64,000 bases of DNA, taken from NCBI GenBank assembly GCA_043228905.1, contig JBHGNT010000008.1, positions 496,001 through 560,000 on the forward strand, written 5' to 3'. The notes beneath the pieces are model-generated. The model was not told the DNA's origin. It worked only from the letters and a program-made list of their open reading frames with translations, and ran no database searches. Below are positions 5,417 through 58,600 of this stretch, piece by piece (positions within the stretch are counted from its first letter, which is position 1; each line of letters begins with the position of its first letter). A program made the position numbers and the translations under genes. This DNA is from Azolla caroliniana. Taxonomy: Eukaryota; Plantae; Polypodiophyta.

Positions 5417-6103
5417 TGACAGGAATTACACGCTCCTATGAACACCGCTCGGCCGCAACCGAGTCTAAGATCAAACACAGAAAACGGGAATGAATACACA
5501 CGACACAAAGGATGTTTAACGTGGAAAACCCTGAGAGGGAAAAACCACGGTAGTCCACAGACTCCAAACTATCACTATATCACAATGGTTACAACAGTGA
5601 GTTCACGGAGGCGACGACCTCGTGCTCACGATCTTCGCCACAGGCGGCGGTTACAACAGAGGCAATGACCTCTTTCTCTTTCTCTCTCTCTCTGTACACT
5701 ATTACGCGTTCTAATCTTGCGCCAACAAGAATGACAACAACTACAGTCTAAGTTTGCCCTAAGTCATATTTATACTAATATGACTTTTTCGTCTATTTAC
5801 AAATATAGCCCCAAAGGTCTCTCAGAAACATATTTACGAATATGTCCCTTCATCCGGTGAGCACTCCTCACCGGGCCTGCATCATCTGGATCTTGCGGGG
5901 TACTCGTCATCCGGTTCTCACCGGGTCATCCGTAGCCGGGTACTCCTTATCCGGTTCTTATCAGGTCTTCATCATCCGGTTCTCACCGGATCATCCGTAA
6001 CTGGGTACTCCTCATCCGGTTCTCACCGGGTCTTCCGTAGCCGGGTACTCCTCATCAGCACTGTTCTTCTCACTTCCCATCCGGAGGGACCTATCTCCCA
6101 ACA
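5417..6103 (-). mobile_element. Solo LTR (Copia-type), inverted, inserted in the G2 protease
   Basis: TG..CA ends with 5-bp TSD GATTT at 5412-5416 and 6104-6108; removing it restores MDFYKKG. The minus strand has the gggttttccacgttaaa motif common in plant Copia LTRs. Internal tandem repeats at ~5850-6060. Confidence 0.88.
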
Positions 6104-26235: not shown

Positions 26236-26679
26236 CTTTGGTCTTTTCATCCTATTTCATTTTAGGATTTCATTTTAGTCTTCTTCATTGTCTCGTGGTT
26301 TGGTTCATTCTTTCAAGTGGACGTTAGTATTCCGTCTAGGTTCTTCTTCTTGTGAGAGTTCTTCCGAGTTAGGGTTTATGCGGTTTAGGGATTCGGGTGT
26401 TTCTCTCTTCTTCGTGTGAGAGTTTGATTTGGTTTGGGGGTTCCTACAACGATGGCTTTGGTCTTTTCATCCTATTTCATTTTAGGGTTTCATTTTAGTC
26501 TTCTTCATTGTCTCGTGGTTTGGTTCATTCTTTCAAGTGGACGTTAGTATTCCGTCTAGGTTCTTCTTCTTGTGAGAGTTCTTCCGAGTTAGGGTTTATG
26601 CGGTTTAGGGATTCGGGTGTTTCTCTCTTCTTCGTGTGAGAGTTTGATTTGGTTTGGGGGTTCCTACAACGACGGCTTT
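26236..26679 (+). repeat. 220-bp tandem duplication within the N1 3' LTR
   Basis: CTTTGGTCTTTTCATCC at 26236 and 26456; CTTT again at 26676. Confidence 0.93.
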
Positions 26680-29581: not shown

Positions 29582-30071
29582 AAGATTTACTTTTAACCTT
29601 TCTTGAAGAACCAAAATCTCTTACAGAGGCAATCAGTCGAGCGGTCTGATGCAACGACCACCTTTTCAAACGACGTTCGGAACATCAATTTCAAATGCCA
29701 TGGACTAGGCCAGAGCCCACATACGCCTTAGTCGCAGCTAAACCGGTTGCATGAGATGTATCTCAGGCAAATACTCTGACGCCGATGGAGATCGACACCA
29801 TGCATCGACGTGGCCCATTATCGGAAGATTTACTTTTAACCTTTCCTGAAGAACCAAAATCTCTTACAGAGGAAATCAGTTGAGCGGTCCGATGCGACGA
29901 CCGCCTTTTCGAACGATGTTCGGAACGTCAATTTCAAATGCCACGGATTAGGCTAGAGCCCACATACGCCTCAATCGCAGCTAAACTGGTTGCACGAGAT
30001 GTATTTTAGGCAAATACTCTGATGCCGATGGAGATCGACACCATGCATCGATGTGGCCCATTATCGGAAGA
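29582..30071 (+). repeat. 243-bp tandem duplication within T2 gag
   Basis: AAGATTTACTTTTAACC at 29582 and 29825; AAGA again at 30068. Confidence 0.93.
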
Positions 30072-30864: not shown

Positions 30865-33800
30865 TGTTGAGAGACAAGCTCAACATTTGTGCGTAATCTG
30901 ATGCGTAAAGCCGGTACGCAGACCGGTGCGTTGGAAGGCCGTATCGGTGCGTAGATTGAAAGGCCGTTAGAAAGATATTCCTCGTAAGGAATAGTTTTGG
31001 GAGCAAGTGTCGAGGCTCATTTATGAGCAATCAACTACTTATGTCAGCCCATTGTCAAGGCTTGTATAAAAGTGCTCATTGAGCACATCCTATGTACAGA
31101 TTGAGTATTATTTTTTGAATTGTGTTCTTGTGTTTACTCTCTCTCTGTCTCTCCCATGAGTACTGTGCAAACCTAACCTTTCCATTAAACCTGCGTTTTC
31201 GGTTGTTCGGTTTTCCTACATTGCTTCCGCACGCCATTCTTTTCATGGTATCAGAGCGCGAGGGTTGAGAACCTCTGCACCTGACTTTGCTTGAAGAAAA
31301 AAAAAAAAACCAACGAAAAAGAACAAGAAAACCAATGGACAGAGGAATGGCTAGCTCGCTTCCAACGGAGAAGCTCGACAGAACCAACTACAGATCTTGG
31401 TCCTACAAGATGCACCAGTACCTGCTCGGACACAGTTACTGGAGCTATGTCGATGGAGCAAATGACACAGCACCCGATTCGACACACAAAGACTTCTCGG
31501 CGTGGGAACAATCGGCGAGCAGAGTGTTGTACTGCTTCGCGTCTTGTGTGGGCGAACAACTGTTAAGCTACGTTCCGGATGCAAAAACGCCAAAGGGTGC
31601 GTGGGAAAATCTGAAGAAAATCTTCGCCACGAGCACCACAGCCCAGAAGCTTCCACTTTGACAGGAGTTGAGCAACCTATGGCAACGCGATTTGTTGGTG
31701 GTTGACTATACCTCGAGGATTAAGGACATATGCGACTCCTTAGCTTCCATTGATGTGAACATCGAGGAGAGCGAGATGGTCCAGGTCTGTCTTGGGGGTT
31801 TGGCGTCGAAGTTCTGGGCGTTCCGAACTGCTTTGTGTACCCGAGAGAATACGCCATCCTTTTTCGACTTACAGTTGATGCTCCTGGTAGAGGAGGACCA
31901 CACGTGTGCGTCAACGAGCACGCACACCGATAGCAAGATGTTGTACATGGAGGGAGATAGGCCTCGTGGTCATGGTGGACGCGGCGAGTCGGTACGCAAT
32001 GGAGGAGGTCGACGGGCTCAAGGAAGAAGGCACCGAAGTGATGCCGACAACAATTCCAAACCCTCCAGAAACAGGGGGAGTCGAGGCGACGAGAACCAGC
32101 AAGGGAACTCCGCCGCGGAATGCTGGTACTGTGGCAAGAAAGGCCACAGGGAGAGCGAGTGCTGGAAAAAACGTGCCGATTCGGAGAGAACCGGGTCTGG
32201 AACATGTTCCGAACAGACCGAGAAAGGAAATCGGCAATGATCGCACTACACAGAAGGATCCAGAGAAGTCAAAAAAGGGTCAGTTTTCGTGACGAGACAC
32301 GAAGCAAACTCAATGAGGCAGAACACCCCGAAATCGGATGAGGTGTGGTACGTCGACTCCGGCACGTCAAATCACATGACGAGCCATAAGGAGTGGTTCT
32401 CGTACCTAGAAAAACCGATGCAACCGGGAGTAGTCGCAACCGGTGACGACACTCCGCATCCGATCGCGAATGTCGGAGAAGTTCCCCTGAGCCATGTCGG
32501 GCAGAGAGGGAAACTCATGAACGTGCTACACGTTCCGACAATCACGAAGAACTTGGTGTCGGTCGAACAGATCGTTGACCAAGGGACGGAGGTCTGGTTT
32601 ACGCACCTCGGGTGCTTCATTGAGGAAGAAGGCCGTATTATTGCGTAAGGGCGCAGAGATGGGAGAATGTTTATCCTCGACTCTACTGACGGTGGCACCG
32701 CAATGTTCGCGAAGGGACAAAAAGTTGAGTCGGACATCGACTGATGGCACCAACGGATAGGCCACGTCAACTACCATCGGTTTCAAGACCTGCAATCAAA
32801 ACAAGTAGTGTTCGGATTGCCCAAATTTAGTAGTCGGAAGGCACAAATTTGTGAAGCCTACCAGCTTGGGAAGCAACACCGACTTCCCTTCCCCAACGAG
32901 CGTAACCGGAGCTGGAACAAGCTCGATGTGATACACTCCGATGTGTGGGGGCCGGCACAAAACGTTAGTCTTGGCGGGAGCCGATATTTCGTCTCCTTCA
33001 TCGACGACTATGCGCAGCACATGTGGATCTACCTCATTGAGAGGAAGAGTGAAGTCTTCGACTGTTTCCGGGACCTTAAAGGGTTTGTGGAAACGGAAAC
33101 GGGAAGAAAGATCAAGTGCCTGCGATCGGATGGCGGAAAAGAATACTTTTCCGGTCAATTCAACGGTTATCTACAACAGATGGGAATTCGGCGCGAATTC
33201 AATTGTAGATACACGCCGGAGCAAAACGGCATGGCCGAGAGGAAAAATCGGTCGGTTGTGGAAGCGGCACGGGCAATGCTGGAAGAAAAGAGCTTGCCCA
33301 AGTTCTATTGGGCCGAGGCGGTAAGGACCGCGGTATACATCCAAAATCGGATTGGAGAAAAAGTGTCGGCTCACGAGCTATACTTCGGAACGAAGCCGAA
33401 CTTGCGACACTTCAAGTTTTCGGTAGCATTGCGTATGTGCATGTGTGGAAGGAGAAAAGCAGGAAGTTGGACGCAAAAGCTTAGAAGAGTATCTTGGTCG
33501 GCTATTCGGACAAGCAGAAGGGTTATAAGTGCTATAACCCGCGTACCAAACAAGCGCGCGTGAGCCGCAACGTTGTGTTTGATGAGTCCGCGTCCTGGTA
33601 CTTGCCTCCGACTCCGGACCTAACCTCCAATCCGAGTTCTGACGATGAGGATAGTCCGGCTGAGCCTGAAATCGGGACCCCCAAAGAGAGTCTGATTTCG
33701 TTTCAGTTAAGTGGACCAAATGGACGACTGTGTCGGTACGACCAGTCCGATGAAGAGTCGGCGAGTAGTGAAGACTCGGCCATGCATTCCCCGCGTAGGA

Positions 33801-36422
33801 AGCCTAGGAGACAGCTTACGCGCAAAGAGAAAGGAAAGAAGAAGGTGTTGGATTCCGGCACGGATAGGAACGAGTTAGACCGACGCGAGTCCGACTCCGA
33901 GGGAAGCAGCGATGGGCATTTAGGAGCAAAGTCCGCGTCGGCCGAGAAGACCTCGACATCGGCTAATGAACGATTACGCCGATCTACCCGCCAAAAGAAC
34001 CCAGTTGTGCGGTTCGGATACAACGAGTACATGGCGCATCATTATGCGTACATGACCCATGTAGCGGAAGTGCGTGAGCCGTAGAGCTACGTAGAAGCGG
34101 CGAAGGACGCGAATTGGCCCACCGCGATGGAGGAAGAGATGCACGCATTGGCGGAAAACGAGACCTGGGACCTGGTTGACGCACCGAAGGGTGTGAAGCC
34201 GATCGGATGTAGGTGGGTGTACAAGGTCAAGTACAACACCGACAGCTCTGTCAACCGGTACAAGGCCCGGTTAGTGGCAAAAGGCTACGCGCAGAAACAC
34301 GGTGTCGACTACGATAAGACGTTCGCACCGGTTGCGAAGATGACGACCGTTCGTGTTTTGGTCGCGGTAACCGTGGCCAAGGGGTGGCACTTACATCAGG
34401 TGGATGTAAAGAATGCATTCCTGCAAGGTGAGCATGAGGACCAAGTGTACATGGTACAGCCCCCCGGATTTCACTCCGGAACGAACACGTCGGCAGTGTG
34501 CCGATTGAAGAAGTCCCTTTACGAACTAAGGCAAGCCCCGCATGCCTGGAATGTGAAGATCACGGATCGGCTGCATTGGATGGGCTTTGCGACGTCCAAA
34601 TCGGACTCCTCGTTGTTCATTCGGAAAGGTCGACTCGGGCCGGTCAGTATTTTACTCTATGTTGATGACTTGGTCATCACCGGCTCCAGCTTGCGGCATC
34701 ATTTGACATGAAGGATCTAGGGGACCTTCATTACTTCCTCGGGATCGAAGTGATCCACACCCCCGAAGGCATACTGATCAGCCAACATCATTACGCGCGG
34801 AATATGCTCTTCAAATTCGGGATGGCCGACTATAAGTCCGTCTCGACTCCTCTGGATAGAACTATGAAGCTTCGCCCCAATTCCGGCAAGGTTTGCGATC
34901 TGACAAGGTTCCGACAAATTGTCGGAAGCCTTATCTACTTGACAATCACCCGACCCAATCTCTGTTACCCGGTCGAAGTGATTAGTCAATTTATGGCGCA
35001 ACCTACCGAGGAGCACCTTCAGTGTGCACAACGCGTACTGCGGTACGTAAGCGGCACTAAGGACCGGGTACTGCTATATCGGACCGATACAGCCCCGTAG
35101 TTGGTCGGCTACACCGATGCCGACTGGGCTGGCAATGTCGGCGATCGCCGATCCACGTCCGGATACGCGTTCTCTCTTGGGAATGCCGCGATAGCGTGGA
35201 GTAGCAAGAAGCAGCCGACAGTTGCACTGTCGAGCACCGAAGCTGAGTATCGAGGAGCGGCTATCACGACATGCAAAGCCATATGATTGAAGCGGCTACT
35301 TAAGGATCTGCAGGTGGAGGTGTCCGATCCGACGATGATCTACTGCGACAACCTCAGCAGCATCCAACTCGCGAAGAACCCCATCTTCCACACATGGACC
35401 AAGCATATTGAGGTGCATTACCATTTTATCCGTGAGCGTGTCCTTTCTGGTGAAGTCGAACTTCAGTATGTTCTGATGGATCGGCAGACCGCCGACATCT
35501 TCACCAAGCCTCTTGGTCTGGACAAGTTATGGCAATTCTCGGGTGCGCTTGGGTTGCGTCACCTCGACATGCCAAACTTGAGGGGGAGAAATGTCCCAGA
35601 TGACCCGCGGAGAGCAGATCCGCGGAAGAGTCCGAAAGCGGACATAAGGGGAGTAGCCGAAAGAAAATGCCAGAGCCAACCAGGCATGGGGGAGTTGACG
35701 TCGTCAAAGGCGAGAAGACCGAAGACGAGTTGGAGTCAGCCAACTCTGAAGAGAGCGAAAACCGATCGGAGGTAGCCAAGTCGGTTCGGATGTTTGATTC
35801 AAATACACTGAATCAACCGAGAGCCAAGCGGAAAAGAAGGCAGCAAGAGAAGTGTCGACACCGCGACAACAAGGGAGTTGTGAAGGGCCGTGGGAGGAGA
35901 CAAGCCAACCAGAAGGGTCGAAGTGCGCGGAGTCAAACAGGCCGAGGAGCGTGAGCAAGGCGTGTAGCCAGGAGAAGCCGGAGTGTAGATCCGGTAGAGC
36001 AGGCGGAACCTCAAGTTGAGCTTGAGGGGGAGTGTTGAGAGACAAGCTCAACATTTGTGTGTAATCCGATGCGTAAAGCCGGTACGCAGACCAGTGCGTA
36101 GGAAGGTCGTATCGGTGCGTAGACCAAAAGGCCGTTAGAAAGATATTCCTCGTAAGGAATAGTTTTGGGAGCAAGTGTTGAGGCTCATTTATGAGCAATC
36201 AAGTATCGTCAGTACTTATGTCAGCCCATTGTCAGGGCTTGTATAAAAGTGCTCATTGAGCACATCCTATGTACAGATTGAGTATTATTTTTTGAATTGT
36301 GTTCTTGTGTTTACTCTCTCTCTGTCTCACCCATGAGTACTGTGCAAACCTAACCTTTCCATTAAACCTGCGTTTTCTGTTGTTCGGTTTTCCTACATTG
36401 CTTCCGCACGCCATTCTTTTCA
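30865..36422 (+). mobile_element. Ty1/Copia element 'K2', full length, decayed, related to K1
   Basis: LTRs 30865-31245 and 36033-36422; TSD ACTAT; PBS TGGTATCAGAGC at 31246-31257. CCHC knuckle CWYCGKKGHRESEC; IN, RT and RNase H closely similar to K1. Confidence 0.96.
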
Positions 36423-39400
36423 ACTATTAAAAAGGAATCCTTAGTTCAACTTCCCGCGAAATATCATCCTTATGCTGATGTATTTGACAAGGTCAAAGAT
36501 GGTACTCTTCCTCATCATCGTCCCTATGATTGTCCTATCGATTTACAACCAGAAACAGAGCCAGCGTGGGGACCGATTTACAACTGTTCACCAACTGATT
36601 TACAACTGTTCATCTTCAGGCCTACATAGAAAAAATTTGGCAAACGGGTTTATTCGTCATTCGAAATCTCCAGCCGGTGCACCCATTTTCTTTGTCAAAA
36701 AGAAAGATGGATCCCTTCATCTTGTCGTTGATTACCGCAGCTTGAATAAGGTCACCATTCAAAATAGGTATGCACTTCCCCTTATATCAAGTCTATTAGA
36801 ACGTGTAAATGGTGCCATGTTTTTTACAAAAATTGACTTACGAGGAGCATATAACCTCGTGCGGATCTGATCGGGAGATGAATGGAAGACCGCTTTTTGC
36901 ACCCAATATGGGCACTTCGAGTATACCGTTATGTCGTTCGGTCTAATCAATGCACTCACAGTCTTCCAGCACATGACAAATGATATATTCAGAGATTTCT
37001 TGGATATCTGTTTGATCATCTATCTGGATGATCTATTGATTTATTCGAAGACCTAGGAAGAGCATGATTCTCATGTACTATTAGTACTAAAACGACTCCA
37101 AGAGCATGGTCTTTATGCCAAACTAGAAAAATGTAGCTTTGACTGCAAGCATGTGGAATTTCTAGGCTACGTCATCTCCTAAAAAGGCATCTCCATGGAT
37201 CCAACTAAAGTCCAAACTGTGCTAGAGTGGCAAACTCCACGTTCGTTACGAGATGTGCAATGTTTCCTAGGCTTTGCCAACTTCTACCGCAAGTTTATAC
37301 AAGATTACTCGAAGATTATTTTTCCTCTCACATAGCTTACCAAGAAGGGACAGTCATTTCTTTGGTCCAATGACGCGGACATGGCTTTTATGCATCTTAA
37401 GAAAGCCTTTACATCAGCTCCTATTCTAGCTCATGTGGATACAAACAAACCATTCTTCATGGAGGCCAACGCATCAGATTTCGCCCTCGGTAGCATCCTT
37501 TCACAACAAGGAGATAGAGAAAAGTTACATCCTATGGCTTTCCAATCACGCAAATTTGATGTTGCGGAAATTAACTACGAGATACATGACAAGGAGTTAT
37601 TAGCCATTGTGGATTCGTTTGTGCAATGGCGGCACTTCGTAGAGGGCTCTTCTCATCAAGTCATCTTCTTCAGTGATCACAAAAATCTTGCTTACTTCCA
37701 AAACCCTCGTGTACTAAATCAACGGCAAGCTCAATGGGCCCAATTCCTCACGCGTTTTGACTTCAAAATCACATATCGGCGAGGAATCAACAAGGAAAAG
37801 CAGATGCACTATCGCGACATTCATATCTTGCACCTCGTCCGGGTGATCCAACATTTGATAATCAAAAGCAGGTAATCTTGGGACCAACACGTTTGCACAC
37901 AACACGGATTTTTCACACTCCACTAGATTCCCGGATTATCGATGCCATATGTGCCAACTTGAAGACAGATAGTTTTGCTCAAGCCATTCTAGCGAAAATT
38001 GATGCCTCTCAAGCATCCTGTTCCCAGTCTCAACAACCAGGTATGGACTACCGACAATTCAAATATCATGATGGTTTATTATTCTTTAAAAAGCTCGTGT
38101 ATGTTCCCGATTGCTCCTGTCACCTTCAAATCGTCCAAAATTGTCATGACACCCATACAGTTGGACATTTCGGCAGTACTAAGACGTTGGATCTAGTTCG
38201 ACAATCCTTTTGGTGGCCCCATATGCGACGTTTTGTCGACGACTATGTTCGGACCTATGATGCTTGTGGCCGAGCAAAGATGCCACGACATAATCCATAT
38301 GGCTTGTTGGAATCCTTACCAATTCCAAGTAAGTCGTGGCTGTCCATTGGTCTTGATTTTATCACAGATCTTCCAATCTCGAAGGGTTTCGATGCTATCT
38401 TAACCGTCATCAATCAATATACTAAGATGGCACATTTTGTGCCTTGTACTAAGGCCATCACTAGTGAGGAAACCACAACCTTTCTGATGTGTGAGGTATT
38501 TCGGCATCATGGCTTCCCAAACAGTATCATCAGTGACCGAGGACCTCAATTCATCTCTAAATTTTGGAAGCATCTCTTCAAGATGCTCAAGGTCTCTTGC
38601 AACCTCTCCTCCGGCTACCATCCCCAAACTGATGGGCAAGCAGAACGAATGAATCAAACGCTGGAACAATATCTTCAGTGTTTTCTGAGTTATCCATAGG
38701 ACGATTGGGTTGATATTCTCCACTTTCGGAGTTTGCTTATAACAACGCTATTCACTCCTCGACTCAGGTCTCGCCATTCTACACTTATACCGGTTCTCAT
38801 TCTCGTTGGTTTGTGATTGACACTCCATAGCTACCTACCAATTCTCGTGTCGAGGATCATCAAGAGAGGCTACGCAAGATTCAGATGGATCTATCTATTC
38901 ATCTTCATCATGCTCAACACACTCAGAGGCTTCCCTCCTCTTTTGCCATCAGAGATCGAGTATGGATCTTACATCGTCACATCAAGACAACTCGACCTTT
39001 GCAACAAATTGGATTATTGACAACTCAGTCCTTTCCATATTACTGGCAAGATTAATGATGTCACATTCCGCCTTGATCTTCCTCTGCACCTTCAGATACA
39101 TCCAGTCTTCCATAGTTCTCTTCTCGAACCTTATCAAACCAACACTATTCCCGATCGTGTTACACCACCACTGCCCTGGAGTATGAAGTTGTTGTCATCC
39201 TCGACTCCAAGTTTGTTCGCAACGAACTTTATTATTTGATCGATTGGCTTCGACTATAGTCCGAGCGAACATACTTGGGAACCCGTCGAGCATGTTGCCA
39301 ATGCTCAAGATCTTCGAACAAACCCGGTGTCGTGTGAATCTTCACACACTATGTAAAAAATAATGAAATAATTATTATAGATTAGATTAGTAGCTTACTA

Positions 39401-39644
39401 TAGAAAGATGGATATACTCAAGAGCTTCAAAATGTATTTTACTGTATACAAAATGGAGAAATACATATCAAGTTATGTGAAAATAAAGTTTGAGAAGATA
39501 GAGAAATTAGAACTATCCCACATAGATAGGAAACTTAAGGCCCTGGCTATATAACCACCTTGAGCTCCCTCATTTTTCATTTGTTCTAAGAGCAGTTTGG
39601 CCACTTTGTCTTGATGGATGATGGTGGCCAAATTCCCTAAATCC

Positions 39645-39888
39645 AGAAACCGACCGGTAAACAAATTCGGAACCGGAACCGGCAAGCAAAACCGGAACCG
39701 GAATCGGTATGCAAACCGGAAACAAGCAAAACTGGAACCGGAACCGGTATGCAAACCGGAAACCGGCCGGTAAGCAAAACCGGAACCGGACCTGGCATGC
39801 AAACCGGAACCGGCCGGCAAACAAAACCGGAACTGGAACCGGCAAGCAAACCGGAACCGGTCGGCAAGCAAAATGGAACCGGCCGGCG
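39645..39888. repeat. AACCGG/CAAACCGG-rich minisatellite in the G3 5' LTR
   Basis: Degenerate accggaaccggcaagcaaa units. Confidence 0.9.
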
Positions 39889-40585
39889 AGGGATTCGGTG
39901 ATCGGGCGGAACCGGCGACCGTACGAGGTTGGACGCAAATCGAACGGATAAAAGGATCATGTGGCTATTTAAAGAAAGGTAAAAGAGACTAAAGTAAAGG
40001 TCAAGTGGACGGTCGCATGCAACTAAAGAAAAAGCCATGCAACTAAAAATAGATTTAACGAAAAGAAAAGTTATGCAACTAAAAGTAGAGGCCATGCAAC
40101 AAAAAGTGGAGGCATATGATCAACGAGGAACTCCATATATAATTCCATTTATTTATTTTTTCCTAGACTCATATGCTCTCTCCATATTATATTGTTCTTC
40201 TTTTCCTTCGGAGCTCTCTTATCTTATCGAAGCCAAGAACCCTAAATTTCCTTACGGAAGTCATAAACCCTAATTTCCTAATCAAAGCCATATAACTCAA
40301 AAACCCTAATTTTCGAATTGAAGCTAAAAACCCTAATATTCTAATTAAATCCATATTTCATTTCTTCTAGTCTATTACTCTAGTCATCTCCATTAGCAAA
40401 TTTTTGTAATCCCAATCTTGGGATTAATTGTAATCTTTCTTTCCCTTTATTAATGAAATTTGTGAATCTTTCTCATTTTGTATTAATTGCTTAATATAAT
40501 CATACGAATCTGATATCTTCCGGTCGGAGGCCCCGGGGTCCTACCTCAAAGTTCACATATCCTCGTCCTATTTCTACGACATCTT

Positions 40586-40603
40586 TGGTGAACCCGACAT
40601 GAA
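40586..40603 (+). promoter_or_regulatory. Primer binding site complementary to tRNA-Trp (G3)
   Basis: TGGTGAACCCGACATGAA after a TCTT spacer. Confidence 0.82.
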
Positions 40604-40634
40604 ATGACGCAGTAGGAGGATATCAAGTACGAAG

Positions 40635-42414
40635 ATGGCTTCGACAAGTCGAACTCAAGGAGAAGAATTGACGAAAGGCATGGTGTCCGTCGTCGAATTC
40701 ATGCTGAAAGACAGAGATCGGGAGGCTTTAGTCGACAAAGCTGTTGACCGAACTGTGGAGACAATTGGAAGATTCGGTGGGAAGAACATCACAAATTTCC
40801 TTGCTACCTACCGGAACGAGATGCAACAAAGAGATGTCCATGATCTAAAACAAATTTCAAGCTTTAATCGTGTGGTAGAACCCGGGATCCGTGAGCGCGT
40901 GATGGAGATCCAAAACGAGCATGCAACTTGGGTGGAGTTCAAAAGGGCTCTTCTCACTGAATACATGCTTGAAGACGCATCGCGGATGACTCGACATACG
41001 TTAATGAATTGGATCGAGAAGAAAGGGAAGAATCTGTGTGCATCGGGAATTTATGTCGAATTCGACCAGAAGTACAACCGACTTCCGAGTGTCGAGCAAC
41101 GAGTTCTCGATGGAGATAAAGTCTTACTATTCCTAAAGGCAATGGATGCGAAAGATCGGCGAGAATTGGGCAGTTTCTTGGAGGACGAAACACAACCAAA
41201 TGGCTTGGTAGCGGACTAGACGGCGGTGAAGAAGGCTTGCAGCCGTTTTGATAAGCGGCGACAATGGCAAGAGGAAGCTGAGGTCGAGAATCCACAATTG
41301 TGGAAGAAGGCACCTACGACGATTGAGCCTAGTAAGCCGATCAACAATTTCGACAACAAAGCAATGGAGGAGTCTATAATCGAAGAGCTCTCCGGAGGAT
41401 CTAAAACTTGCTGACCAAAACGTGCGACGAGCAACCGGATGGTCAGATCCAATCGACGAAAACACAAGCTTTGCGGAGGTTGTGTGTGACACCTATGAAG
41501 CCCTTGTCGAAGAGAAGAGGAAGAGAATCGGTGAAGAAGATGGCACATCAAAGCGACCTAACACGAGGAACGGAGGGAAAGAAGGGCCACCCCAACCTAT
41601 CCCAAGAAAAGAGATTGGTGAGACAAACATGAAGCCCAGCCCGGTGGATCGAGCCAACCTGCTCGGATGGAAGTCGAAGAATCAACGAAGAAAGGAAAAG
41701 AACGAGCAGCACCGACTTACAAGCTAAGCTCGGACATAGAACAAACAACTAACTTGCGGAAGGTCCTTGAGGAGAAGGGTTTAGATAGTCATGTCGACCT
41801 TACCTTGAGAGAGCTACTTGGGATCGCAAAGAAGGAGTTCCATGATACTATCGTGGACCTTATTAAAAGGAAGCGGCAACAATCTGATGAAGAGGAGGTG
41901 AAAACAAGTGCCATAACCATGGCAAGATCGGAAGAGGAGGAAGAAGAAGAAGTGGTGGCGGATAGCCATTACTCACGGCCTCATTGGGCAAGAGTGACAA
42001 CGGAGACACCTGTGAAGATCGGGGAGAAGAAAGAGACCGTGGTCGCTTTGATTGACCATGGCTCAGAGATCAACCTCATGTCGACCAAGTTCTACAAGAA
42101 AGGAAGATGGTCGTTTAATACAAACCATGGAGGCTACGGAGGACTTGTACGGAGCTTGCCCCAACGTTAAAGTCACGATCGGGGATGTAGAGATTGATCA
42201 ACACTTCTTCGTGCAAGACTCGGCTTCACATCCCGTCATCCTAGGACAACCATATATAACATCGTCCCGGATGGAGACCAAGGTGTTCGATAATGGAGCA
42301 GCCTTCGTGCGCGTCAAGAGTCTTGATAGTAAAAGATCCGTTCAATTCCTGACGGTGCGAGCTAATCATGAAAGGAACCGAGATAGCCTTGGAGGCGAAT
42401 CCTCGGATTTTTAA
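40635..42414 (+). pseudogene. G3 gag-protease ORF (disrupted)
   Basis: ORFs 40635-41219, 41422-41727, 41667-42170 (DHGSEINL) and 42052-42414, ending SDF-stop. Confidence 0.88.
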
Positions 42415-45400
42415 ACCGGACTATTGAAGCATGGGGCACAAATAGTCCGAGCAATCATAAGTCCCCACAAGGAAGCAAAGTGTGTGGATTGCAAGGAGAA
42501 GCAACAGGCGTCACACCTGGCGGCGCATGCAAACTTAGACTACTCAACAAGAAGGAAAAGTGTTAGATACAAGACTTCGAGGAGGTGCTGAAAGAAGAAA
42601 GCATAATCGAAGAAGAAGAATTCGTGTCATATATTCTGGAGGAAGCCTCATTTAACGACACCATCGGCGAAATCGAGGAAGTCGTGGATTTGAGCTATCG
42701 TCACCCTCAACATGTGATTTCGGTTAACTCCGTCAACATGTATACTATCATCGATGAATATCATTGAGGCATCTTGATAGAGGAAGCCGAAGTCAACACA
42801 AAATATAAAACCGTGAACAGGAAGATCAAGCCAGTTGCAGTTCCGCTACCGGAAGATAGTTGGCAAAAGATGAAGGAAGTTGCAAAAGATCCAAGCTTAA
42901 GGAACCCAAATACAATTGGTCACATCTTCACTAAAGAGAAGAAGGGAAAGCTACAAGTTGGAAGGGAGGATTTCCTCCTCCCTGAAGAGGAGCGGATGTT
43001 TCGTGGAAGGCTTGAAAGACATGGGAAGGCTTTCGCGTTTTTCCCAAAAGAAATTGGGTGTGCTAATCCAAGGACGGTAGAACCGATGGTGAAGGAAGAT
43101 AGTTGGCAAAAGATGAAGGAAGTTGCAAAAGATCCAAGCTTAAGGAACCCAAATACAATTGGTCACATCTTCACTGAAGAGAAGAAGGGAAAGGAACAAG
43201 TTGGAAGGGAGGATTTCCTCCTCCCTGAAGAGGAGCGGATGTTTCGTGGAATGTTTGAAAGACATGGGAAGGCTTTCGCGTTTTTCCCAAAAGAAATCGG
43301 GTGTGCTAATCCAAGGACGGTAGAACCGATGGTGATCTTCACGGTGCCGCATGTGCCTTGGAATTTGAAACCGATACCGGTTCCGAGAGCACACTTACCG
43401 AAGTTGATCAAGCTCTTAAAGGAGAAGGTGAGGATGGGAATTCTAGAACCGTCGAAGGCTCCTTATTCTAATAGGTGGTTCACGGTGCCAAAGAAGAATG
43501 GATCGTTGCGATTCATTCAAGATCTTCAACCCGTCAACAAGGTGACAATTCGGAATGTTGGAATCGGTCCGAGAGTGGATGAATTTGCCGAGGCGTTTGC
43601 GGGCCGGTCCATCTACTCCATCGGCGATCTCTACTCTGGCTACGATCAATTCCAGTTGGCGGTCGACAGTCGTGACATTACAACCATGAGAACTCCAATC
43701 GGGTTGGTGCGGATGTGTACCTTACCTCAAGGTGCAACGAACTCGGTGGCTCATATGGTGAATGCCATGAACAAGGTCTTGAAGGATTGCATCCCGGATA
43801 TCATGATGCCATTCTTAGATGATATTTCGATAAAAGGATGTTCGGATGAAGAGAAGGATGAATCAAAAGATAAGGATGGATGTAGAAAGTTCTTCATGGA
43901 TCATATGAAAGATTGCGAGAAGGTGCTCCAAAGGCTCGAAGATGCGAATTTGACATTTTCGAGAGAAAAATCCACATTCAGGCAACCGGAGATCCTGGTG
44001 GTAGGTCACTTGTGTGGAGCATACAGTCGGAAGCCTTCGCCATCCAAGGTGAATGCAATCCAAGACATGAAAGAAGAATGTGTAACCCAAACGGAGGTTC
44101 AAAGGTTCCTTGGAGCATGCGCGTTTTATCATATTTGGATTCCACACTACGCCCACATTGCTGAGCCATTATATGGTCTACTAAAGAAGAAGCGGATGTT
44201 CGAATGGACGAGCGAGCATACAATCGCCATCCGAAGGCTGAAGAAATTATTGATGGAGGCACCTGCATTACGGAAAGCGGACTATTCATACGGCAAGCCC
44301 ATTTTCGTGACTGTGGATACTAGTCCAATCGGAATTGGATGGGTTATCAACCAAGAAGATGAAGATTGCAACCGATATGCAATTCGGTTTGGCGCGAAAG
44401 TGTTAAGTGACAGGCAAAGAAGGTATGCCCAAGTGAAGAGGGAACTATGGGGGATCGTCTCGGCAATCAAATCTGATCGTGATTACCTTATTGGAGCAGA
44501 AGTCAAAATTGAGACCGATTGCCTACCAATTTTGGGTATGATATATGGTTGTAATACACCGGATATTGCCATGTTGCGTTGGATTGCATATATCAAATCA
44601 CTCAACCCGGAGATCCGTCATGTAGCTGGGAAGCGTAATGTCGTTGCAGACATGCTATCACGAGCGAGATACGACGGAGAAGAAGATCGACATTCTGATG
44701 AAGATGATGTTGGCTTGGATTTCTTTGCAAGTTCCTATGCTCGGGTGTTGACTACTTTCATAGAAGAGGACTACGAAGGCGAATTCGTGGAGATCAGGAA
44801 ATACTTGAGTTCTCTCCAAAAAAATGAATCATGGTCGAGGGAAGGCTTCCATCGAATTCGGAAGAAGGCATACAAGTATTTCCTTAAGGATGGAGCTCTT
44901 TGGAGGCATGCAAAAAAGAAGAATGGGACTCCGATGAGAGTTGTCTGCAAGCTAGAAGACCAACAAAAACTAATGTCTGAATTTCATGATAGTGTTTTTG
45001 CAGGCCATCGAGGAATATGGGCTACGTTTGCGAAGCTTAAGGAGAAATATTGGTGGCCGGGCATCTACAAAGATGTAGCAGCTTATGTGGAAACATGTAA
45101 GGAATGTCAAATGTTTTCGAATATTCGCCATCGAGATGGACTTCATCCGACTTACCCATTGGCTATGCATTACAAGTGGATGGTGGACATAGTGATGATG
45201 CCAATGGGATGAGGGCAGATGAAGTATCTTGTGCTCGCGAGAGAGGATCTTGCCAATCAAGTTGAAGGGCGAGCATTAAGAACTAAGGAGACATCATCGG
45301 TATGCCGATTCCTTCTTGAAGATGTTATTTGCAGATATGGATGCGTCGGCAAGATAGTGGCTAATAGAGGCGAGTTGGACGCCAATGAAGCTAGAGAATT

Positions 45401-46103
45401 CTTCTCGAGGATGGGAATCAAATTATCTCTTACCATGGCGTATAATCCGAAAGCAAATGGGAAGGTGGAACATGGACATGGACCGATTGTGAAGGCTCTA
45501 GTGAAAGCTTGCCATGGGAAAATAGGAGAATGGCCGTGTCTATTGCCATTTGCACTATGGGCTGACAGGACTACTCATAGCACGGTGACGGGATACATGC
45601 CGGCAGAGCTCATATTCGGACAAAAGCCAATAATGCATGTAGAACAAAGTATTATTTCATGGTTTGCATTGCCATGGCAAGATGAGATAAGTAGAGAAGA
45701 TCTTCTAGCATTGAGGATTTGACAATTAGAGCAGAATTTGGAAGATATAGAGGCGGTTAAAGCGCGGCTAAAGAATGCAAGGCTAAAGAACAAGAAAGAC
45801 TTCGATAAACGACATCGACTTCGGCCGAGGAAAATCGTTGAAGGAGATTGGGTGCTAGTCTATGACAGTAGCCTAGATAACCAACATGGTACAGCTCGAA
45901 AATTCTCACAACGATGGTTTGGGCCATATGTGGTGAAGAAAGTGGAAGATAATGCAACATATCATTTAGTAGAACTAGATGGTACACCACTTGCCTTGCC
46001 AATTGCCGGTAAAAGAATCAAGATCTTCAAGAGAAGAGATAGAATAGAAATTGGATTCGAAGCTTTTGACGATTCAGTCTTAAGCATTGATGAAAAAGTA
46101 TAG
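42405..46103 (+). pseudogene. G3 pol (RT-RNaseH-IN), in the -1 frame relative to gag-protease; few stops
   Basis: ORFs 42585-42767, 42774-45212 (812 aa), 45219-45722 and 45738-46103, all in one frame. 243-bp in-frame duplication at 42851-43336. Confidence 0.92.
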
Positions 46104-46485
46104 TAAACAAAAATGAATCCTCACCAAAATTGGCACATACCGGTGGATGTGCAGGTTTGGTGGGGGCGAATGTCGTGTGAATCTTCACACACTATGTAAA
46201 AAAATAATGAAATAATTATTATAGATTAGATTAGTAGCTTACTATAGAAAGATGGATATACTCAAGAGCTTCAAAATGTATTTTACTATATACAAAATGG
46301 AGAAATACATATCAAGTTATGTGAAAATAAAGTTTGAGACGATAGAGAAATTAGAACTATCTCACATAGATAGGAAACTTAAGGCCCTGGCTATATAACC
46401 ACCTTGAGCTCCCTCATTTTTCATTTGTTCTAAGAGCACTTTGACCACTTTGTCTTGATGGATGATGGTGGCCAAATTCCCTAAA

Positions 46486-46830
46486 TCCGGAAACCGGCTG
46501 GTAAACAAATTCGGAAACCGGCCGGTATGCAAACCGGAAACCGGCCAGTATGCAAAACCGGAACCGGAACCGGCAAGCAAAACCGGAACCGGAACTGGCA
46601 AGCAAACCGGAATTGGCTGGCAAGCAAAACCGGAACCGACCGGTAAGGAAAACCGGAACCGGAACCGGCCGGTAAGCAAAACCGGAACCGGAATCGGTAT
46701 GCAAACCGGAAACCGGCCGGTAAGCAAAACCGGAACCGGAACCGGTATGCAAACTGGAAATCGGTCGGTAAGCAAAACCGGAACTGGACCCGGCAAGCAA
46801 ACCGGAACCAGAACCGAAACCGGCCGGCGA
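46486..46830. repeat. Longer version of the AACCGG minisatellite in the G3 3' LTR
   Basis: Same units, about 100 bp longer than in the 5' LTR. Confidence 0.9.
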
Positions 46831-47870
46831 GGGATTCGGCGATCGGGCGGAACCGGCGACCGTACGACGTTGGACGCAAATCGAACGGATAAAAGGATCA
46901 TGTGGCTATTTAAAGAAAGGTAAAAGAGACTAAAGTAAAGGTCAAGTGGACGGTCGCATGCAACTAAAGAAAAAGCCATGCAACTAAAAATAGATTCAAC
47001 GAAAAGAAAAGTTATGCAACTAAAAGTAGAGGCCATGCAACAAAAAGTGGAGGCATATGATCAACGAGGAACTCCATATATAATTCCATTTATTTATTTT
47101 TTCCTAGACTCATATGCTCTCTCCATATTATATTGTTCTTCTTTTCCTTCGGAGCTCTCTTATCTTATCGAAGCCAAGAACCCTAAATTTCCTTACGGAA
47201 GTCATAAACCCTAATTTCCTAATCAAAGCCATATAACTCAAAAACCCTAATTTTCGAATTGAAGCTAAAAACCCTAATATTCTAATTAAATCCATATTTC
47301 ATTTCTTCTAGTCTATTACTCTAGTCATCTCCATTAGCAAATTTTTGTAATCCCAATCTTGGGATTAATTGTAATCTTTCTTTCCCTTTATTAATGAAAT
47401 TTATGAATCTTTCTCATTTTGTATTAATTGCTTAATATAATCATACGAATCTGATATCTTCCGGTCGGAGGCCCCGGGGTCCTGCCTCAAAGTTCACGTA
47501 TCCTCGTCGTATTTCCGCAACACCGGTCCACAATCAGCGCCGACTCGTGACACTTGTCGTCTTAAGGGGGGGATAGTGTCATGATATGGCAGGACTTGAA
47601 CCCATAGCCTTATGTTATATGGGTCGATCTCTTGACCATTACATTATCTATTGTAATACGTAAGATGTTATTTTTCATTTAAGTTTTACAACAGAAAATT
47701 ATTGTGTATTCCAGATTTCTCTGAAACATTCTAGAAGCTTCAGGACTATTCCTGAGAACACTATAAAAAGAGGCACAAGGCATTATTTCGAACCAAATTG
47801 GTTCAACGCCAGTCTTAAGCCTCATAGCTATTTTGTACTTACTCTTCACATAATATATTGTCTATTATCA

Positions 47871-47920
<50 letters not shown>

Positions 47921-50900
47921 GTCTTCCACAATCCGTCCTCTTAGTACTAATAGTACTTCCCTTCTCTAGTACTAATTCTCTCTCTGTTTTAGTACTATTC
48001 CTGACATCTACTGGCCTAAGATTCGTCTTGACATATATAGCTATAGGACTAAATGTCACCAATGTTAGGTTAACAAAGCCGAGCGACTTAAAGGTGTTGG
48101 ACTTCCCTTGGAAATTCCCAATAATAAGTGGGAAAGTATATCCATGAACTTTATTGTTAGCCTTCCTCTCACACAAAAAGACCATGATGCCATCTCAGTT
48201 GTGGTTGATAAACTAACTAAAATGGCCAGATTTATTGGTACTAAAACCATGACAACAGCTCTTGAATTGGCTTACCAATTCGTTGAAGAGTTATTTTGAT
48301 TTTATGGGTTATCGATGAATATCGTGAGTGATAGAGATCCAAAGTTTACTAGATGGATGCAAGTCTTTAAGAAGCTAGAAACTACATTGAACATGAGCTC
48401 CATGGATCATCCTCAATCTAATGGACACACAAAACGAGTAAATCAAATTATTGAGGACATGCTTCGAGCATACATTGGTACAAAGCCAACAAAATGGGAA
48501 CGCTATCTCCCAATTTTGGATTTTGCTTACGACAACTCCAAACATACATCGACGGGATATAGTCCTTTTATGTTGATGTATGGTTTTCAGCCACGAGCCC
48601 CGATTGATGTTAATATACATCATGATGAGTTGCGAAGTACGCAAAACTTTCTTCGGGATATGCAAGATATATTGCATATTGCACGAGATAATATAAAAAC
48701 AACTCAAGATAGAGCGCATTTTTATGATGATCATAATAGGCAACCTCGTGTATTCAACCCTAGACAGAAGGTATTTTTACTCGTACCTTACAATTCTAAG
48801 ACCTTGTCTACATGTAAGTGCACTGAGTTAGCCACATGGTTTTGTGAACCTTTTACAATCCTCAAACGCATTGGTTCATCATCCTATTGTCTTGCTCTTC
48901 CTGATGGTGTTGAAATCCATCTAGTTTTCCATGTAAGTCGTCTAAAAGACCTTATTGGTTTTTGCGACAATACAGTCACAACTGAAACTTTGGTTACTTT
49001 TGAACAATTATCTTTAAACCACATGTACCAAAGAGAATTCTCGATGTTAAAACAAAAAATTTGCATTCTAAAATAATCTGAGAATTATAAATGGATGGAT
49101 AAGTCTATACAAGATGCTACATGGGAACGAGAAAATACCCTTAAAACTAACTTCCCTAAGTTTTCATTGCAAGAGTGTAATGTTTTAAAGAGGGGGAGTA
49201 TGTTACGGGCATGACCATATAATATCCCGCAGTAAGATTGTACCGTAGTATTCCATACATGTGGATAAAGTGTGAGGGTTAAACGAAAGTGTAAAGAAGG
49301 GAATGATTACTTTTAATCTGTGGGATTGAGACAACCCATTAAGGCGAAGTGTGAACTTGCATGGGGGCCTTAGATCTGGCTATAAATATGAGGCCTAACT
49401 ACCCACATTTGACACATTATCGACAACGTCGAGACTCTATGTTTGTGGTGATTCCACTCTTCTAGCGAGCGCACTAGTACCAGGTACAACTCAACGCCAT
49501 GACAGTGGTATGGGACGCCGATTGAGGCTGGAGTCCGTCTCGATCCCTTCGCTCAGGGGTGGTCAGGTAGATTGACACCCTTCTTTCTCTCTCTCCTCTC
49601 GATTTTCTAATAATATATTTCCTTATCTCATGGCTACATTAGGATCTAGCTCTAACACAAGGCGTCACCATAGACCGAGTAGACAATAATATATCTTTCT
49701 TTATGGCATAATTCCAAGATCCTTGTACAAACGTATGGTTATTCAACACCATAATCATCACCCTTGCACTCATGTATAGTGTCACCATATGGGCTCTATT
49801 CCACCCACTAGTTATGATGTTGTCACAAAGCATCCCGCCCACATGACATGAATTGTGTTGAATTGTATAACCATTATTCCAAGAAATGAGCCTCATCAAT
49901 TGGATTGGAACTATTTTACACGTACGGCTTTTGAAGTATCAAAGAAAATGGTGAAAACAAAACACAAAGAGGGATCATGGTACTCATGAGTCATAAGTGA
50001 TGAAGTATTCAACAACATACTCTATTCCAAAATGATGAAAGGAACAAGGTAATGTAGCGAGATCTATTGAAGCTCTATGCCCATAAGACTTGGCTCACAC
50101 CAATCAAGGCAATTCCCTAAAGATGGCCTTCCATAAAGGCAAGAACTTCTTACAAGATGGATTCACACAAAAATCCAAGCTACATGGTCATCTACATACC
50201 CCATAGTTGTTATAGAGCTATCTACAAACTTATCCTACCAATTAGAGATCAAGGTACGACGAGCACTTCACATACCTAGATCCAAAAGATATTGCAAATT
50301 ATGTGATAGTACCACAAGCAAGATTGCACATAATGTGAAGGAGAGATTACAAATTCCTATAATTGTCCAAACTTTAAACCACATATAAGAGAAGCATGTA
50401 ACTATCTACAAAGACTCCACCACCGTTGGACAAATGGAGAATGCTAACCCACAATAGTGCTCAAGCTTCAAAAGCATAAGGAATCAACCCTTATATTTGC
50501 GTGTAGGATGAACGACAATCCCACATCATTAATTTTTTCCATAGCTCCTTATCTCCACTAACAAGGTGTAGGACTAATTATATAGCAAGCCAAGGAATGA
50601 TGACGACAATGGAGACCACAAGTACTAGGACATGAGACACGTTGGAGATTAGTGCTCTCTATGTCTGATGTACAAGAGGAACCTAAATGAGTTAAACTTC
50701 ATCGTAGCCTCATCTCATCACATAAACCAACCCTGGATTCAAAGTTCAGTCACTACTCTCATTCGTGTTCGATATGTGTGCTACATCTTGTAGAGCAACA
50801 TTGAAATCATTCCACCACATGGATGAAAATTGAGAAGACTTTTAACTTTTTCAGTGGCTCAAATTTGAGGTCGTGCAATTGATATTTGAAATAATTTCAA

Positions 50901-54983: not shown

Positions 54984-55600
54984 CTGTAATGAATTGAGCA
55001 TTAGATAGTGATCTATAAAAGTTGCCTAGATTCTCATGATGTTGGAACTTAATGTTCATCTGACAACTAATTATTCATCTTTTCTAAACACTGCAGCAGA
55101 AGCTTTTCTTTATAATCCATCGAGCTAACACATTGATTGGTATTTTGGGTTCTTTCACTTTATTTGAATGGCCTTTCTAATCAAATTTATTAACTTTGTC
55201 ACTAAGTCAGCATCGAAACAGTCTTCAGCTGGTATCATTGTGAAGGAGAACTTTATAATGTTGGATTGTCAAACCACCAATAGGGATAGCATAGCTAAAT
55301 CAGTAATCTAGTTATAAACAGCAAAAGCTACAATAATTATGGATTCAAATCTATCACCACTGATACTATTTGAAACATTTGTAACATGATCGATTCTCTT
55401 CACTATCCCATGAATGCAGCCTGTAACCCTGCAATAATTCCCAAGTTGCACATACTCCTGGAAAATGTTGCTATGAAATCAGGATGGAACATATTCACAC
55501 CACACATTCAGAATATGTATAGGACATCATAATGATGACTTTTATCAGCTGAATAGGCATTTTGGCTAGATGTCATTTCTACACCACTATTCTACGTACT

Positions 55601-58600
55601 TGTTGGGGTAAAGGCCCTAAATGACCCCCTTATAGTGTGTACATGAGTATAGGCCTATTTATAAAGGCCAAAAGTCACTAACCACTTTTTCGTTATTTTT
55701 GGGCTAAGTTAAGTGTGAACTTGGCCAACCCTAAATGGGTCTTATAAAACTACTGCAAAGGGAGCTCCTCCTACTACTGCTCTCTCTCTAGCTTTTCTAC
55801 CATAGCTCTACTATTGCATCTAAAGGGCGTATACTAGGGTGAATCCTGAGTATTCCTTAGCCCGATTGAAATCATTCCTAACCCTTACAACTGGTACCAG
55901 AGCAGATTTAGGGTTTCTGAACTTCTGCACAGTTGCTGTACAGCAAAGAACAGGTGTTCAGACCTCTTTATTGTGAGCTATGGCGTCATCCTCCTCAGAA
56001 GTGAAGAATCTTTTTGAGATTCGACGATTTGAGGGAACAGGTTTCGACTTGTGGAAGGAAAGATTGCAAGGAATTCTTTTTTTGAAGGATTGTGAGAGGG
56101 CGTTGGAGGCAGAAAAACCCAAGAACATGTCAGAAGTTGCATGGCAGATTTTAAACAAAAAGGTTGTCATATATATTAAGATGGCTGTTTCTGATGAGAT
56201 CTTGGTAGATCTCAAAGGGTTGGTATCTGCTTCTAAAATATGGGCAAAGATGCAGGCTACATATGAAAACAGTACACCTATTAATCAAGTACACCTAATA
56301 TGAAAGCTTGTTGGCATGCAATTGGATGAGTCCAAGAGTGCAGCTGAACACCTTATAACAGCTGTAGGACTCAAGAATGGCTCCTTTTGATGATAAGCTC
56401 AAAGCCATTTTCCTGCTAATGACACTACCTGACTCGTGGGAGACATTGGTAGTTTCATTGTCTAATAGCCCCAACTTAACCTTTGATGGTGTTAGGGGCT
56501 TTATACTCAATGAAGAGATCAGGAGAAAAGCAAGTGGAGAAGGTGGTAGCTCAGCTAACATGGTTAGAGGTAGGACAAATAAGAGAAGTAACTATGCACA
56601 TAGGAACAAATGTAAAAGCCAAGAAAGGGGAAATAGCAGCAAAGTTAAAAGCAATGACGTAACATGCTATCAATGTGGCAGGAAAGGCCACAAGAAACCT
56701 AATTGCCGCTATTACAAAGCAGAACTTGAAAGAAAAAAGAATTCTGGAGATAAGAGAAAGGACAAGACTAATTTACATGACAGCCAAAAGGACGAAGAGA
56801 AGGCCAATTTGGCCTCAAATGTAGTCATAGAGGAGCTGTCAAATGTTGAGGACATTTTATGTGCTACTTTTTCAGCGGATGATACTTACGCATATGATGC
56901 CTCTCTAAATATTCATTCAGAGGACATGTGTATCACTAAGAATGATCTTATTGATGCTTTGCTGACTGTCAATGATGCATTGGCCCAAAACATGGTTAGT
57001 GTTTTTCTACTTTTATTGTAGGCAGCCATGGCCATGTATACCTTGGAAACAATCATGCATGGTGCTTCATTTCATGTGACACCTATCAAGGAGTGTTTTT
57101 CTACTTTTACTGTAGGCAGCCATGGCCATGTATACCTTGGAAACAATCATGCATGTTCCATTGAGGGTATTGGCACTGTGCGTTTTTCTACAAATGGCAC
57201 TAATGAGCGGGTTTTGCATAATGTGCGTTATGTACCAGGGATCACGAAGAGCTTGCTTCCTGTGGGGCAAATGAATATGCATGGTTATAGCATTCTCTTT
57301 GAGAGAGGATCATGGAAAATGACAAAAGGTTCAAGACTGATTGTGAAAGGCACAAAGAAGGGAACTCTTTATTGCTTACATGGAAATGCTATATCGGGCA
57401 AATTTATTGCTTTGGCTGAAGTTCACTCCCATATAGAGTTGTGGCATAAGAGACTTGGCAATATGAGCTAGAAGGGTCTCACTAGGCTTTGTAATCTAAA
57501 GAAGCTTGATGCTAAAGGCACGAAGCTTGATTTTTGTAATGAATGCCAATATGGAAAGCAAGTGAAACGTTCCTTTTACTCTGGTGTGTCTCATAAGTCT
57601 TGTGTATTTGATCTTGTTCATTCTGATGTGTGTAGCATGCCCACCAAATCTATGGGGGGTGCAATGTATTTTATCTCATTTGTTGATGATTTCTCTAGAA
57701 AAATTTGGGTTCAATTTCTTAAATCTAAGGATGAAGCCTTTGCTGCATTTAAGCGTTTTTATGCATTTGTGACCACCCAAACAGGAAGAAAACTGAAATG
57801 TTTGCATATGGACAATGGTGGTAAGTATACAAGTGTTGAATTCAAGAAATTTTGTGAAATTTTGGGTATTAAGAGAGCTTATTGTTCCATACAGCCTCTC
57901 TTCTAATGGTGTGGCTGAATGATATATAAGGACACTTTGTGAGAGAGTGAGATGCATGCTGTCCACCGCTAATCTCCCTCATGGATTTTGGGGAGAGGCA
58001 CTCAAAACTGCAGTACATGTATGCAATAGATCCCCTCACACGACTTTAAAGGGTGACATCCCTAAAGAGGTTTGGTCTGGCAAACCTGCTTCATATGATC
58101 ACTTACGTGTCTTTGGCTGTGAGGCTTTTGTACATATAAGGCCTGAGCTGAGAAACAAACTTGATGCCAAGTCCATTAAGGGCCTCTTCATGGGATATGG
58201 TGAAGAAGGCGAAATGGGTTATAGGATTTGGATACCCCAGCTCAAGAAGGTTATACACAACCGAGATGTTGTTTTCAATGAGGCAAGGCTGTTTCGAAAC
58301 AATTGTGCCTCAAAAGATGACCATAAAAGGGTCAGATTTCAGCATGACCAGACACCTGTTAGACCCAGTTTTGACCATCAGGATCCACCACAAAGGACTG
58401 AAAATATTGATCATCCAGTGGTTTTGGAGCCAGAAGATGTTGGGCAGCAAGATGAGGATGCTGAGAGGAATATGCGGCCAAATAATAATGCTGAAAATGG
58501 CGCTGAAAATAATGGACAACAGCCTAACAATGATAATTTAGACATGCCACCTGATGTTGATCCATTACCTGACAATATGGATCATTGGGTGAGACGTTCT

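Follow-up and report, generated by a model that had tools for sequence, protein, structure and literature searches.

A predicted pseudoknot-stimulated -1 frameshift signal between protease and reverse transcriptase in Phygy-like Gypsy retrotransposons of Azolla caroliniana

The 64,000-nucleotide (nt) stretch of Azolla caroliniana DNA analyzed here (contig JBHGNT010000008.1, positions 496,001 to 560,000; referred to below as the window) contains three Gypsy retrotransposon copies, G1, G2, and G3 (Table 1), in each of which the open reading frame (ORF) encoding Gag and protease closes at the same heptanucleotide. This heptamer, GGATTTTTA, was found at positions 421, 6435, and 42405 of the plus strand, exactly three times in 64 kb, and not once on the minus strand. 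In G1, G2, and G3 it reads G GAT TTT in the phase of the protease ORF and is followed by TAG, TAG, and TAA, respectively, and all three ORFs end in D-F-stop. When the -1 frame was followed from the heptamer, the start of reverse transcriptase (RT) was reached after 134 codons in G1, with one stop between, and after 131 codons in G3, with two; G2 has lost ~1.2 kb of its linker and RT beyond position ~6508, and its pol frame is not readable. The initial annotation of the window had described this arrangement, and its heptamer positions and pol frames were reproduced. It had further proposed a functional programmed frameshift, a claim that applies, on the evidence of layout and covariation given below, to the family rather than to the window copies, which are dead relics, each broken at further sites.

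The protease ORF of the window contains the motif DHGSEIN, and the predicted model of window positions 2 to 355 (predicted local distance difference test score [pLDDT], 93.7) adopts a retropepsin fold that matched the Ddi1 and XMRV proteases (Foldseek E values of about 2e-5 to 2e-4). In contrast to this fold search, a sequence-profile search of solved structures gave no match.

A metagenome scan returned 80 related loci, from which seven lacking the junction and one ending just before it were left out. An exact heptamer was present in 65 of the resulting 72 loci (61 GGATTTT, 1 GGATTTC, and 3 GGTTTTT), while five of the other seven had one-base variants of it and two were interrupted. The frame leading into RT was tallied for the 65 exact-heptamer loci together with locus L081, and the RT start was reached in 44 of these 66. 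The -1 frame was open from the heptamer in 39 of the 44 and contained a stop in another; three loci had decayed in other frames (2 to 10 stops), and a single locus, L040, was open in the +1/-2 frame. Frame 0 was open to RT in none of the 44. Among the 27 loci of at least 5.2 kb, 15 combined an intact Gag-Pro ORF of 684 to 771 codons with an intact pol ORF of at least 1100 codons. Intact copies with protease and RT in one frame, which the initial annotation had named as the result that would speak against it, were looked for among these 15 and not found: in all 15, the pol ORF occupied the -1 frame.

The linker between heptamer and RT is open and conserved in this frame. In 19 representatives it had no stops in the pol frame versus 3 to 21 in each other frame, a comparison that is partly circular, since the representatives had been picked as intact; for all 9 of the 9 pairs, the -1 frame gave a ratio of nonsynonymous to synonymous substitution rates of 0.12 to 0.57. 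Over the region of the predicted pseudoknot, which spans only 21 codons, synonymous change was far lower than in RT in four of the five measurable pairs. Locus L085 brackets the putative shift site, its -1 frame opening exactly at the heptamer and its frame 0 closing five codons on. The protein record has the same boundary: the C terminus of 120 homologous proteins was DF in 61, NF in 4, (D/G/N)F plus five residues in 27, and QVF plus one residue in 2, with 16 running on past the site and 10 truncated or otherwise different. A quick protease tree was built from 93 of these 120, tails over 70 amino acids (aa) being left out. In a wider set, 50 representatives extend to the end of the protease; 35 of them terminate no more than 50 residues on, and a terminal DF is kept by two relatives at 27 to 29% identity.

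Downstream of the heptamer, RNAalifold applied to 32 chosen sequences (the 3 window copies and 29 intact-looking loci) gave a first stem with eight consensus pairs, six of them with double changes. None of 500 shuffles reached any of five measures, and pairing dropped from 80% to between 23 and 39% when the register was slid, both controls ignoring relatedness. A stronger point than the shuffle statistics is, in our view, the fixed geometry of stem 1, which in 13 representatives spans 31 nt and starts 6 nt past the heptamer (5 nt in L040), with sequences that have been replaced: three unrelated stem sequences (GGRC-, GCAC-, and GTAT-type) carry compensatory changes, and the types comprise that of the window, that of L071 and L081, and that of L085. 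Locus L085, whose protein tail resembles Physcomitrium patens entries, has no stem sequence in common with the window and carries an 11-of-12-bp stem plus a different 6-bp loop helix at the same place. The predicted stem, with its covariation, thus begins 5 to 6 nt downstream, within the 5 to 9 nt given as the typical spacer for -1 frameshifting (PMC5009743). The stems of G1, G2, and G3 lie where they had first been noted, with two mismatches in G1, and the observation that their sequences differ with pairing kept extends to the family.

The case for a second helix, which would turn the stem into an H-type pseudoknot, is more mixed. The downstream CCCCA was found as described, at 42463-67 in G3 and 481-485 in G1 and degraded in G2. 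In a script scan for H-type pseudoknots, 22 of 26 sequences, among them G3, had a combined score above that of every one of 40 shuffles; for G1 and for G2, 1 shuffle of 40 equaled the score, and some second helix was possible in each of the 26. Stem 2 paired better with its own partner than with permuted partners (308 of 100000 permutations, relatedness ignored), an excess that lends weaker support to the pseudoknot of the initial annotation; pairing is weak in several families, and G3 has a competing fold. Single-strand folding was less convincing than the pseudoknot scan (z scores of -3.08 for G3, 0.38 for G1, and -1.39 for G2). Covariation supports stem 1, and the predicted loop-to-downstream pairing covaries less strongly. 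No Rfam family matched the junction in the four loci scanned.

Taken together, the two-ORF layout, the position of the heptamer, the open -1 linker, and the fixed stem 1 make it very likely that the junction of the G3 family is a pseudoknot-stimulated -1 ribosomal frameshift site on G_GAU_UUU. The heptamer is slippery and in phase in window copies and relatives, with a third base that departs from the strict XXX pattern. Gag-protease and RT-RNase H-integrase would be encoded in two overlapping frames; a pseudoknot predicted 6 nt downstream would stall ribosomes at the heptamer, where a minority would slip back one base by tandem slippage and go on to make the full Gag-Pro-RT-RH-IN polyprotein (RH, RNase H; IN, integrase). 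We infer the formation of the pseudoknot, the tandem tRNA slippage, and its rate from the sequences. Most ribosomes would terminate 0 to 5 codons past the heptamer and yield mostly Gag-Pro, so that only RT and IN would be rationed. Given that protease lies before the shift site and termination after it, a protease domain is present on every Gag, as had been proposed; this follows directly from the layout.

Splicing is the alternative that survives best, and we regard it as improbable. An intron over the junction would be removed in some transcripts, joining Gag-Pro in frame to pol, and the hairpin would regulate splicing. Such an intron bridges the break between GAG-PROT and RT in Ogre elements (PMC6317226), gene models from P. 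patens and from Adiantum bridge the site in several cases, and L085 has a GT just 5' of the stem. However, the gene models resume at differing places, as predictor artifacts would, and the would-be intron is open and under purifying selection in the -1 frame, unlike the noncoding, stop-bearing spacer of Ogre. An intron would also leave unexplained why a conserved heptamer stands at fixed spacing and, in most families, directly before the stop.

A slightly smaller chance falls to the separate production of pol, through an internal start or on a shorter RNA, with the structure serving packaging or dimerization. Retrotransposon RNAs do carry structured packaging signals. The first Met of the pol frame, however, varies by locus from codon 3 to codon 111, although the frame opens at the heptamer itself, and the structure keeps a constant 6-nt distance from the heptamer.

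Readthrough of the stop codon stimulated by the pseudoknot, as in gammaretroviruses or perhaps Retand, is very improbable. The stop directly follows the heptamer, 5' of the structure, in 58 of 65 loci, as readthrough would have it; yet it is TAG in 28, TAA in 18, and TGA in 12, and can fall inside the stem. Past the stop, frame 0 stays open for no more than tens of codons, and it reaches RT in none of the 44 loci, so pol does not resume in the same frame after one stop as in Retand-type elements. The initial annotation had placed the stop immediately after the heptamer, which is the usual state and not a requirement, the stop lying five codons past the heptamer in L070 and L085. Just as improbable is inherited decay, in which nonautonomous copies would retain the offset and the motif by descent alone: all three window copies are broken elsewhere, but 15 loci with both ORFs intact share the offset across subfamilies that differ in pol by up to 0.5 to 1.4 substitutions per site, and stem sequences have been replaced with pairing kept.

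Several observations weigh against a pseudoknot-stimulated -1 frameshift at this junction. Of the 16 homologues extending beyond the site, many are named gene models that bridge it at differing points; those of P. patens (UniRef) and Adiantum (NCBI) are likely annotation artifacts, and a retrovirus-style -1 signal after protease would explain why gene models of these elements go wrong at the junction. In one distant, single-member homologue known as protein only (P0209; 1374 aa, 40% identity), a single ORF encodes protease, RT, RNase H, and integrase. This homologue represents either a single-ORF lineage, in which case the layout is not universal, or a mutated copy; P0209 retains a DF in its customary position. 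Many loci are near-identical assemblies and so do not count as independent samples; together the loci amount to roughly 15 to 20 subfamilies. No RNA data set was listed as containing the G3 stretch, and raw RNA reads labeled as a related species were sparse: each run gave 49 to 73 on G3, L040 received 2, and the listings showed no RNA joints, numbers too small to judge splicing or expression. Stem 2 ranked its own partner first in only 4 of 17 representatives and last in L010, and the minimum-energy folds of G3 and L081 form a competing pairing. At 42418-42465 of the window, two AGTCC stretches are each able to pair with stem 1's 5' arm, and the resulting competing fold could act as a switch in the G3 family.

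As a Ty3/gypsy element, G3 has LTRs (long terminal repeats) and the domain order GAG-PROT-RT-RH-INT. Its conserved primer-binding site may be that for tRNA-Trp; none of 31 viral-contig matches contained a tRNA gene. In Pfam scans, the intact pol ORFs of L031 and L040 showed no domains other than RT, a single RNase H region, and integrase, and thus neither a chromodomain nor an aRH domain. P. patens and Adiantum supply the named homologues, proteins of about 60 to 68% identity, and closer homologues reach 94%; judged by the homologues alone, a moss host would be likely. Phygy, a nonchromovirus Ty3/gypsy lineage of P. patens, is described as having a 4-bp NCGN target duplication, a tRNA-Trp primer-binding site, and a length of 7.7 to 10 kb, and its ORF organization is listed as "ND" (PMC6317226). 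CCGG flanks G3 on both sides (one element), and its 8195 bp, a deletion and a duplication included, fall within the Phygy range of 7656 to 9968 bp. The G3 family thus appears to fit the Phygy clade by target duplication, size, and domain content, and it resembles Phygy further in having no extra domain, a coding region that fills the interior, and P. patens homologues. In place of the "ND" of the 2019 survey table (PMC6317226), we find GAG-PROT overlapping RT-RH-INT in another frame, and a -1 signal after protease would now fill that entry.

Table 1. Features of the three Gypsy copies, in window coordinates
Feature	Position (nt)	Strand	Remarks
G1 protease end of Gag-Pro ORF	2-430	+	One internal stop; heptamer 421-427, TAG 428-430
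G1 predicted pseudoknot	434-486	+	Stem 1 434-441/457-464 (two mismatches), stem 2 447-452/481-486
G1 pol, -1 frame from heptamer	421-4090	+	Disrupted: stop, 212-bp duplication, frameshifts
G2 junction	6435-6500	+	Heptamer 6435-41, stop, stem 1 6448-55/6471-78, degraded stem-2 arm; ~1.2-kb deletion directly 3'
G3, full-length decayed Phygy-type Gypsy	39328-47522	+	8195 bp; CCGG target duplication 39324-27 and 47523-26
G3 5' LTR, TG...CA	39328-40581	+	Versus 3' LTR: 1206 matches, 37 mismatches (1243 aligned)
G3 primer-binding site	40586-40598	+	Initial 11 nt shared with 25 related loci
G3 Gag (DUF4100)-protease ORF	40635-42414	+	Ends ...SDF-stop; broken by a deletion and frameshifts
G3 slippery heptamer G_GAT_TTT	42405-42411	+	0-frame stop TAA at 42412-14
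G3 stem 1	42417-42449	+	42417-25 with 42441-49; TGGGG in loop at 42432-36
G3 predicted stem 2, 3' arm	42461-42467	+	Two possible registers with loop G-run
G3 pol, -1 frame	42405-46103	+	~130-codon linker, RT, RNase H, integrase; several stops, 242-bp tandem duplication (42851-43335)
G3 3' LTR	46171-47522	+	Purine-rich tract just 5', about 46159-70

In Rous sarcoma virus, protease lies in the first ORF. Close to where that ORF ends, its gag-pol shifts by -1 into pol, with a pseudoknot on the 3' side (PMC5009743), as the family here is predicted to do; the viral gag-pol belongs to a retrovirus with another heptamer and another structure, and the likeness is one of convergence, not of membership. 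The heptamer itself had been put down as one used by plant RNA viruses, and pea enation mosaic virus, an umbravirus, does shift on G_GAU_UUU, at a site where a nearby 0-frame stop matters for efficiency (PMC5009743). The two sites share the heptamer, the nearby stop, and the departure from strict XXX; the viral one serves the replicase of a plant RNA virus, whereas here the stop usually abuts the heptamer.

Among plant elements, Ogre and Retand (Tat) also have a break between protease and RT, with an intron-type spacer in Ogre and a single in-frame stop in Retand (PMC6317226). The initial annotation, which had given most plant Gypsy elements a single ORF or a break before protease, understated this arrangement. 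Ogre and Retand differ from the family here in having an extra aRH domain and an intron or a stop, as against overlapping frames, a slippery heptamer, and a predicted pseudoknot, and no lineage in the plant survey table has a GAG-PROT frame that overlaps RT-RH-INT (PMC6317226). What is new is therefore the overlapping -1 frame after protease in a plant Gypsy element; the break after protease was already known. No published account of such a signal in the Phygy lineage was found in the literature searched, in which subscription journals are thinly covered, and a literature search for DUF4100 gave no matches. Within the family, a single fixed pseudoknot geometry is predicted for many naturally differing sequences, which would suit reporter tests.

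The exception to the -1 layout, L040, belongs to a high-copy subfamily. At L040:2836-2905 the heptamer is G_GTT_TTT, in the context CAG GTT TTT GAC TAG; the -1 frame meets TGA at once, and pol is intact over 1154 codons in the +1/-2 frame. A pseudoknot with 10-bp and 8-bp helices is predicted 5 nt from the heptamer. When the L040 protein is read through a -2 slip, its RT and RNase H residue numbers exactly equal those of the -1 element L031. An assembly slip is an unlikely source of the frame offset, because no indel was listed in three other DNA runs that contain the L040 family at high depth and because one contig is gapless over 2710-3095. The C terminus was QVFD in 6 of 6 L040 cluster members that reach it, among the matches listed, and QVFY in a sister cluster. 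Of 27 listed differences 3' of the junction, 11 were synonymous in the pol frame versus 19% for random change, and none created a stop, albeit a weak signal drawn from the 40 best supported of 110 differences.

On balance, these data lead us to favor, with moderate confidence, a natural pseudoknot-driven -2 frameshift in L040; alternatively, the element may use a +1 slip, or the family may have spread with the enzymes of other elements. At the DNA level, L040-type evidence comes from one locus. A search of viral contigs for the junction pattern gave 42 matches, none encoding protease or RT, and so no further L040-type DNA. The PRRSV nsp2 -2/-1 site, GG_GUU_UUU, also has an immediate -1 stop and requires a protein complex on a C-rich motif, with no RNA structure (PMC4937337). 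L040 shares its G_GUU_UUU core and immediate stop and differs in its predicted pseudoknot and in having A, not G, before the heptamer. On a U6A site, -2 shifting depends on the spacer, peaking at spacers 1 to 2 nt shorter than for -1 (PMC3458567); the L040 spacer is 1 nt shorter than that of its -1 relatives, which is the direction favoring -2. It seems somewhat more probable than its opposite that one ancient signal runs through the Phygy-like moss and fern clade and that the L040 subfamily, still living, switched from -1 to -2 through a GAU-to-GUU change and a spacer 1 nt shorter. If so, a -2 shift would be essential for reverse transcriptase in L040, beside -1 sisters with the same pseudoknot, and L040 and these relatives would form a natural pair for a spacer-length rule known so far from engineered constructs only (PMC3458567).

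Beyond plants, a protein search of viral contigs found no relatives, and a phage collection gave no match. Prokaryote assemblies yielded only short stray contigs, with the junction spanned in L081 and L085. L081 (assembly G001) and L082 to L090 (G001 and G002) are plant-type retrotransposon contigs within prokaryote assemblies and likely represent contamination.

Some further observations concern the window itself. At 4177-5425 the 3' LTR of G1 adjoins the deleted gag end of G2, like a tandem sharing one LTR. The G3 LTRs contain AACCGG-rich repeat arrays (39636-39880 and 46480-46816) whose copy number differs, the LTRs measuring 1254 and 1351 bp. Near-perfect head-to-tail duplications of 212 to 245 bp, 92 to 99% identical, occur in different elements at 1614-2043, 42851-43335, 26236-26679, and 29582-30071; these four may be real or may be long-read assembly artifacts. 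Copia-type elements lie at 17778-23378, 31313-36054, and 55600-60591, the first with 374-bp LTRs that are 96% identical. G3 in turn lies within a second Gypsy pol, a distant relative (about 36622-38648 and 48009-48947).

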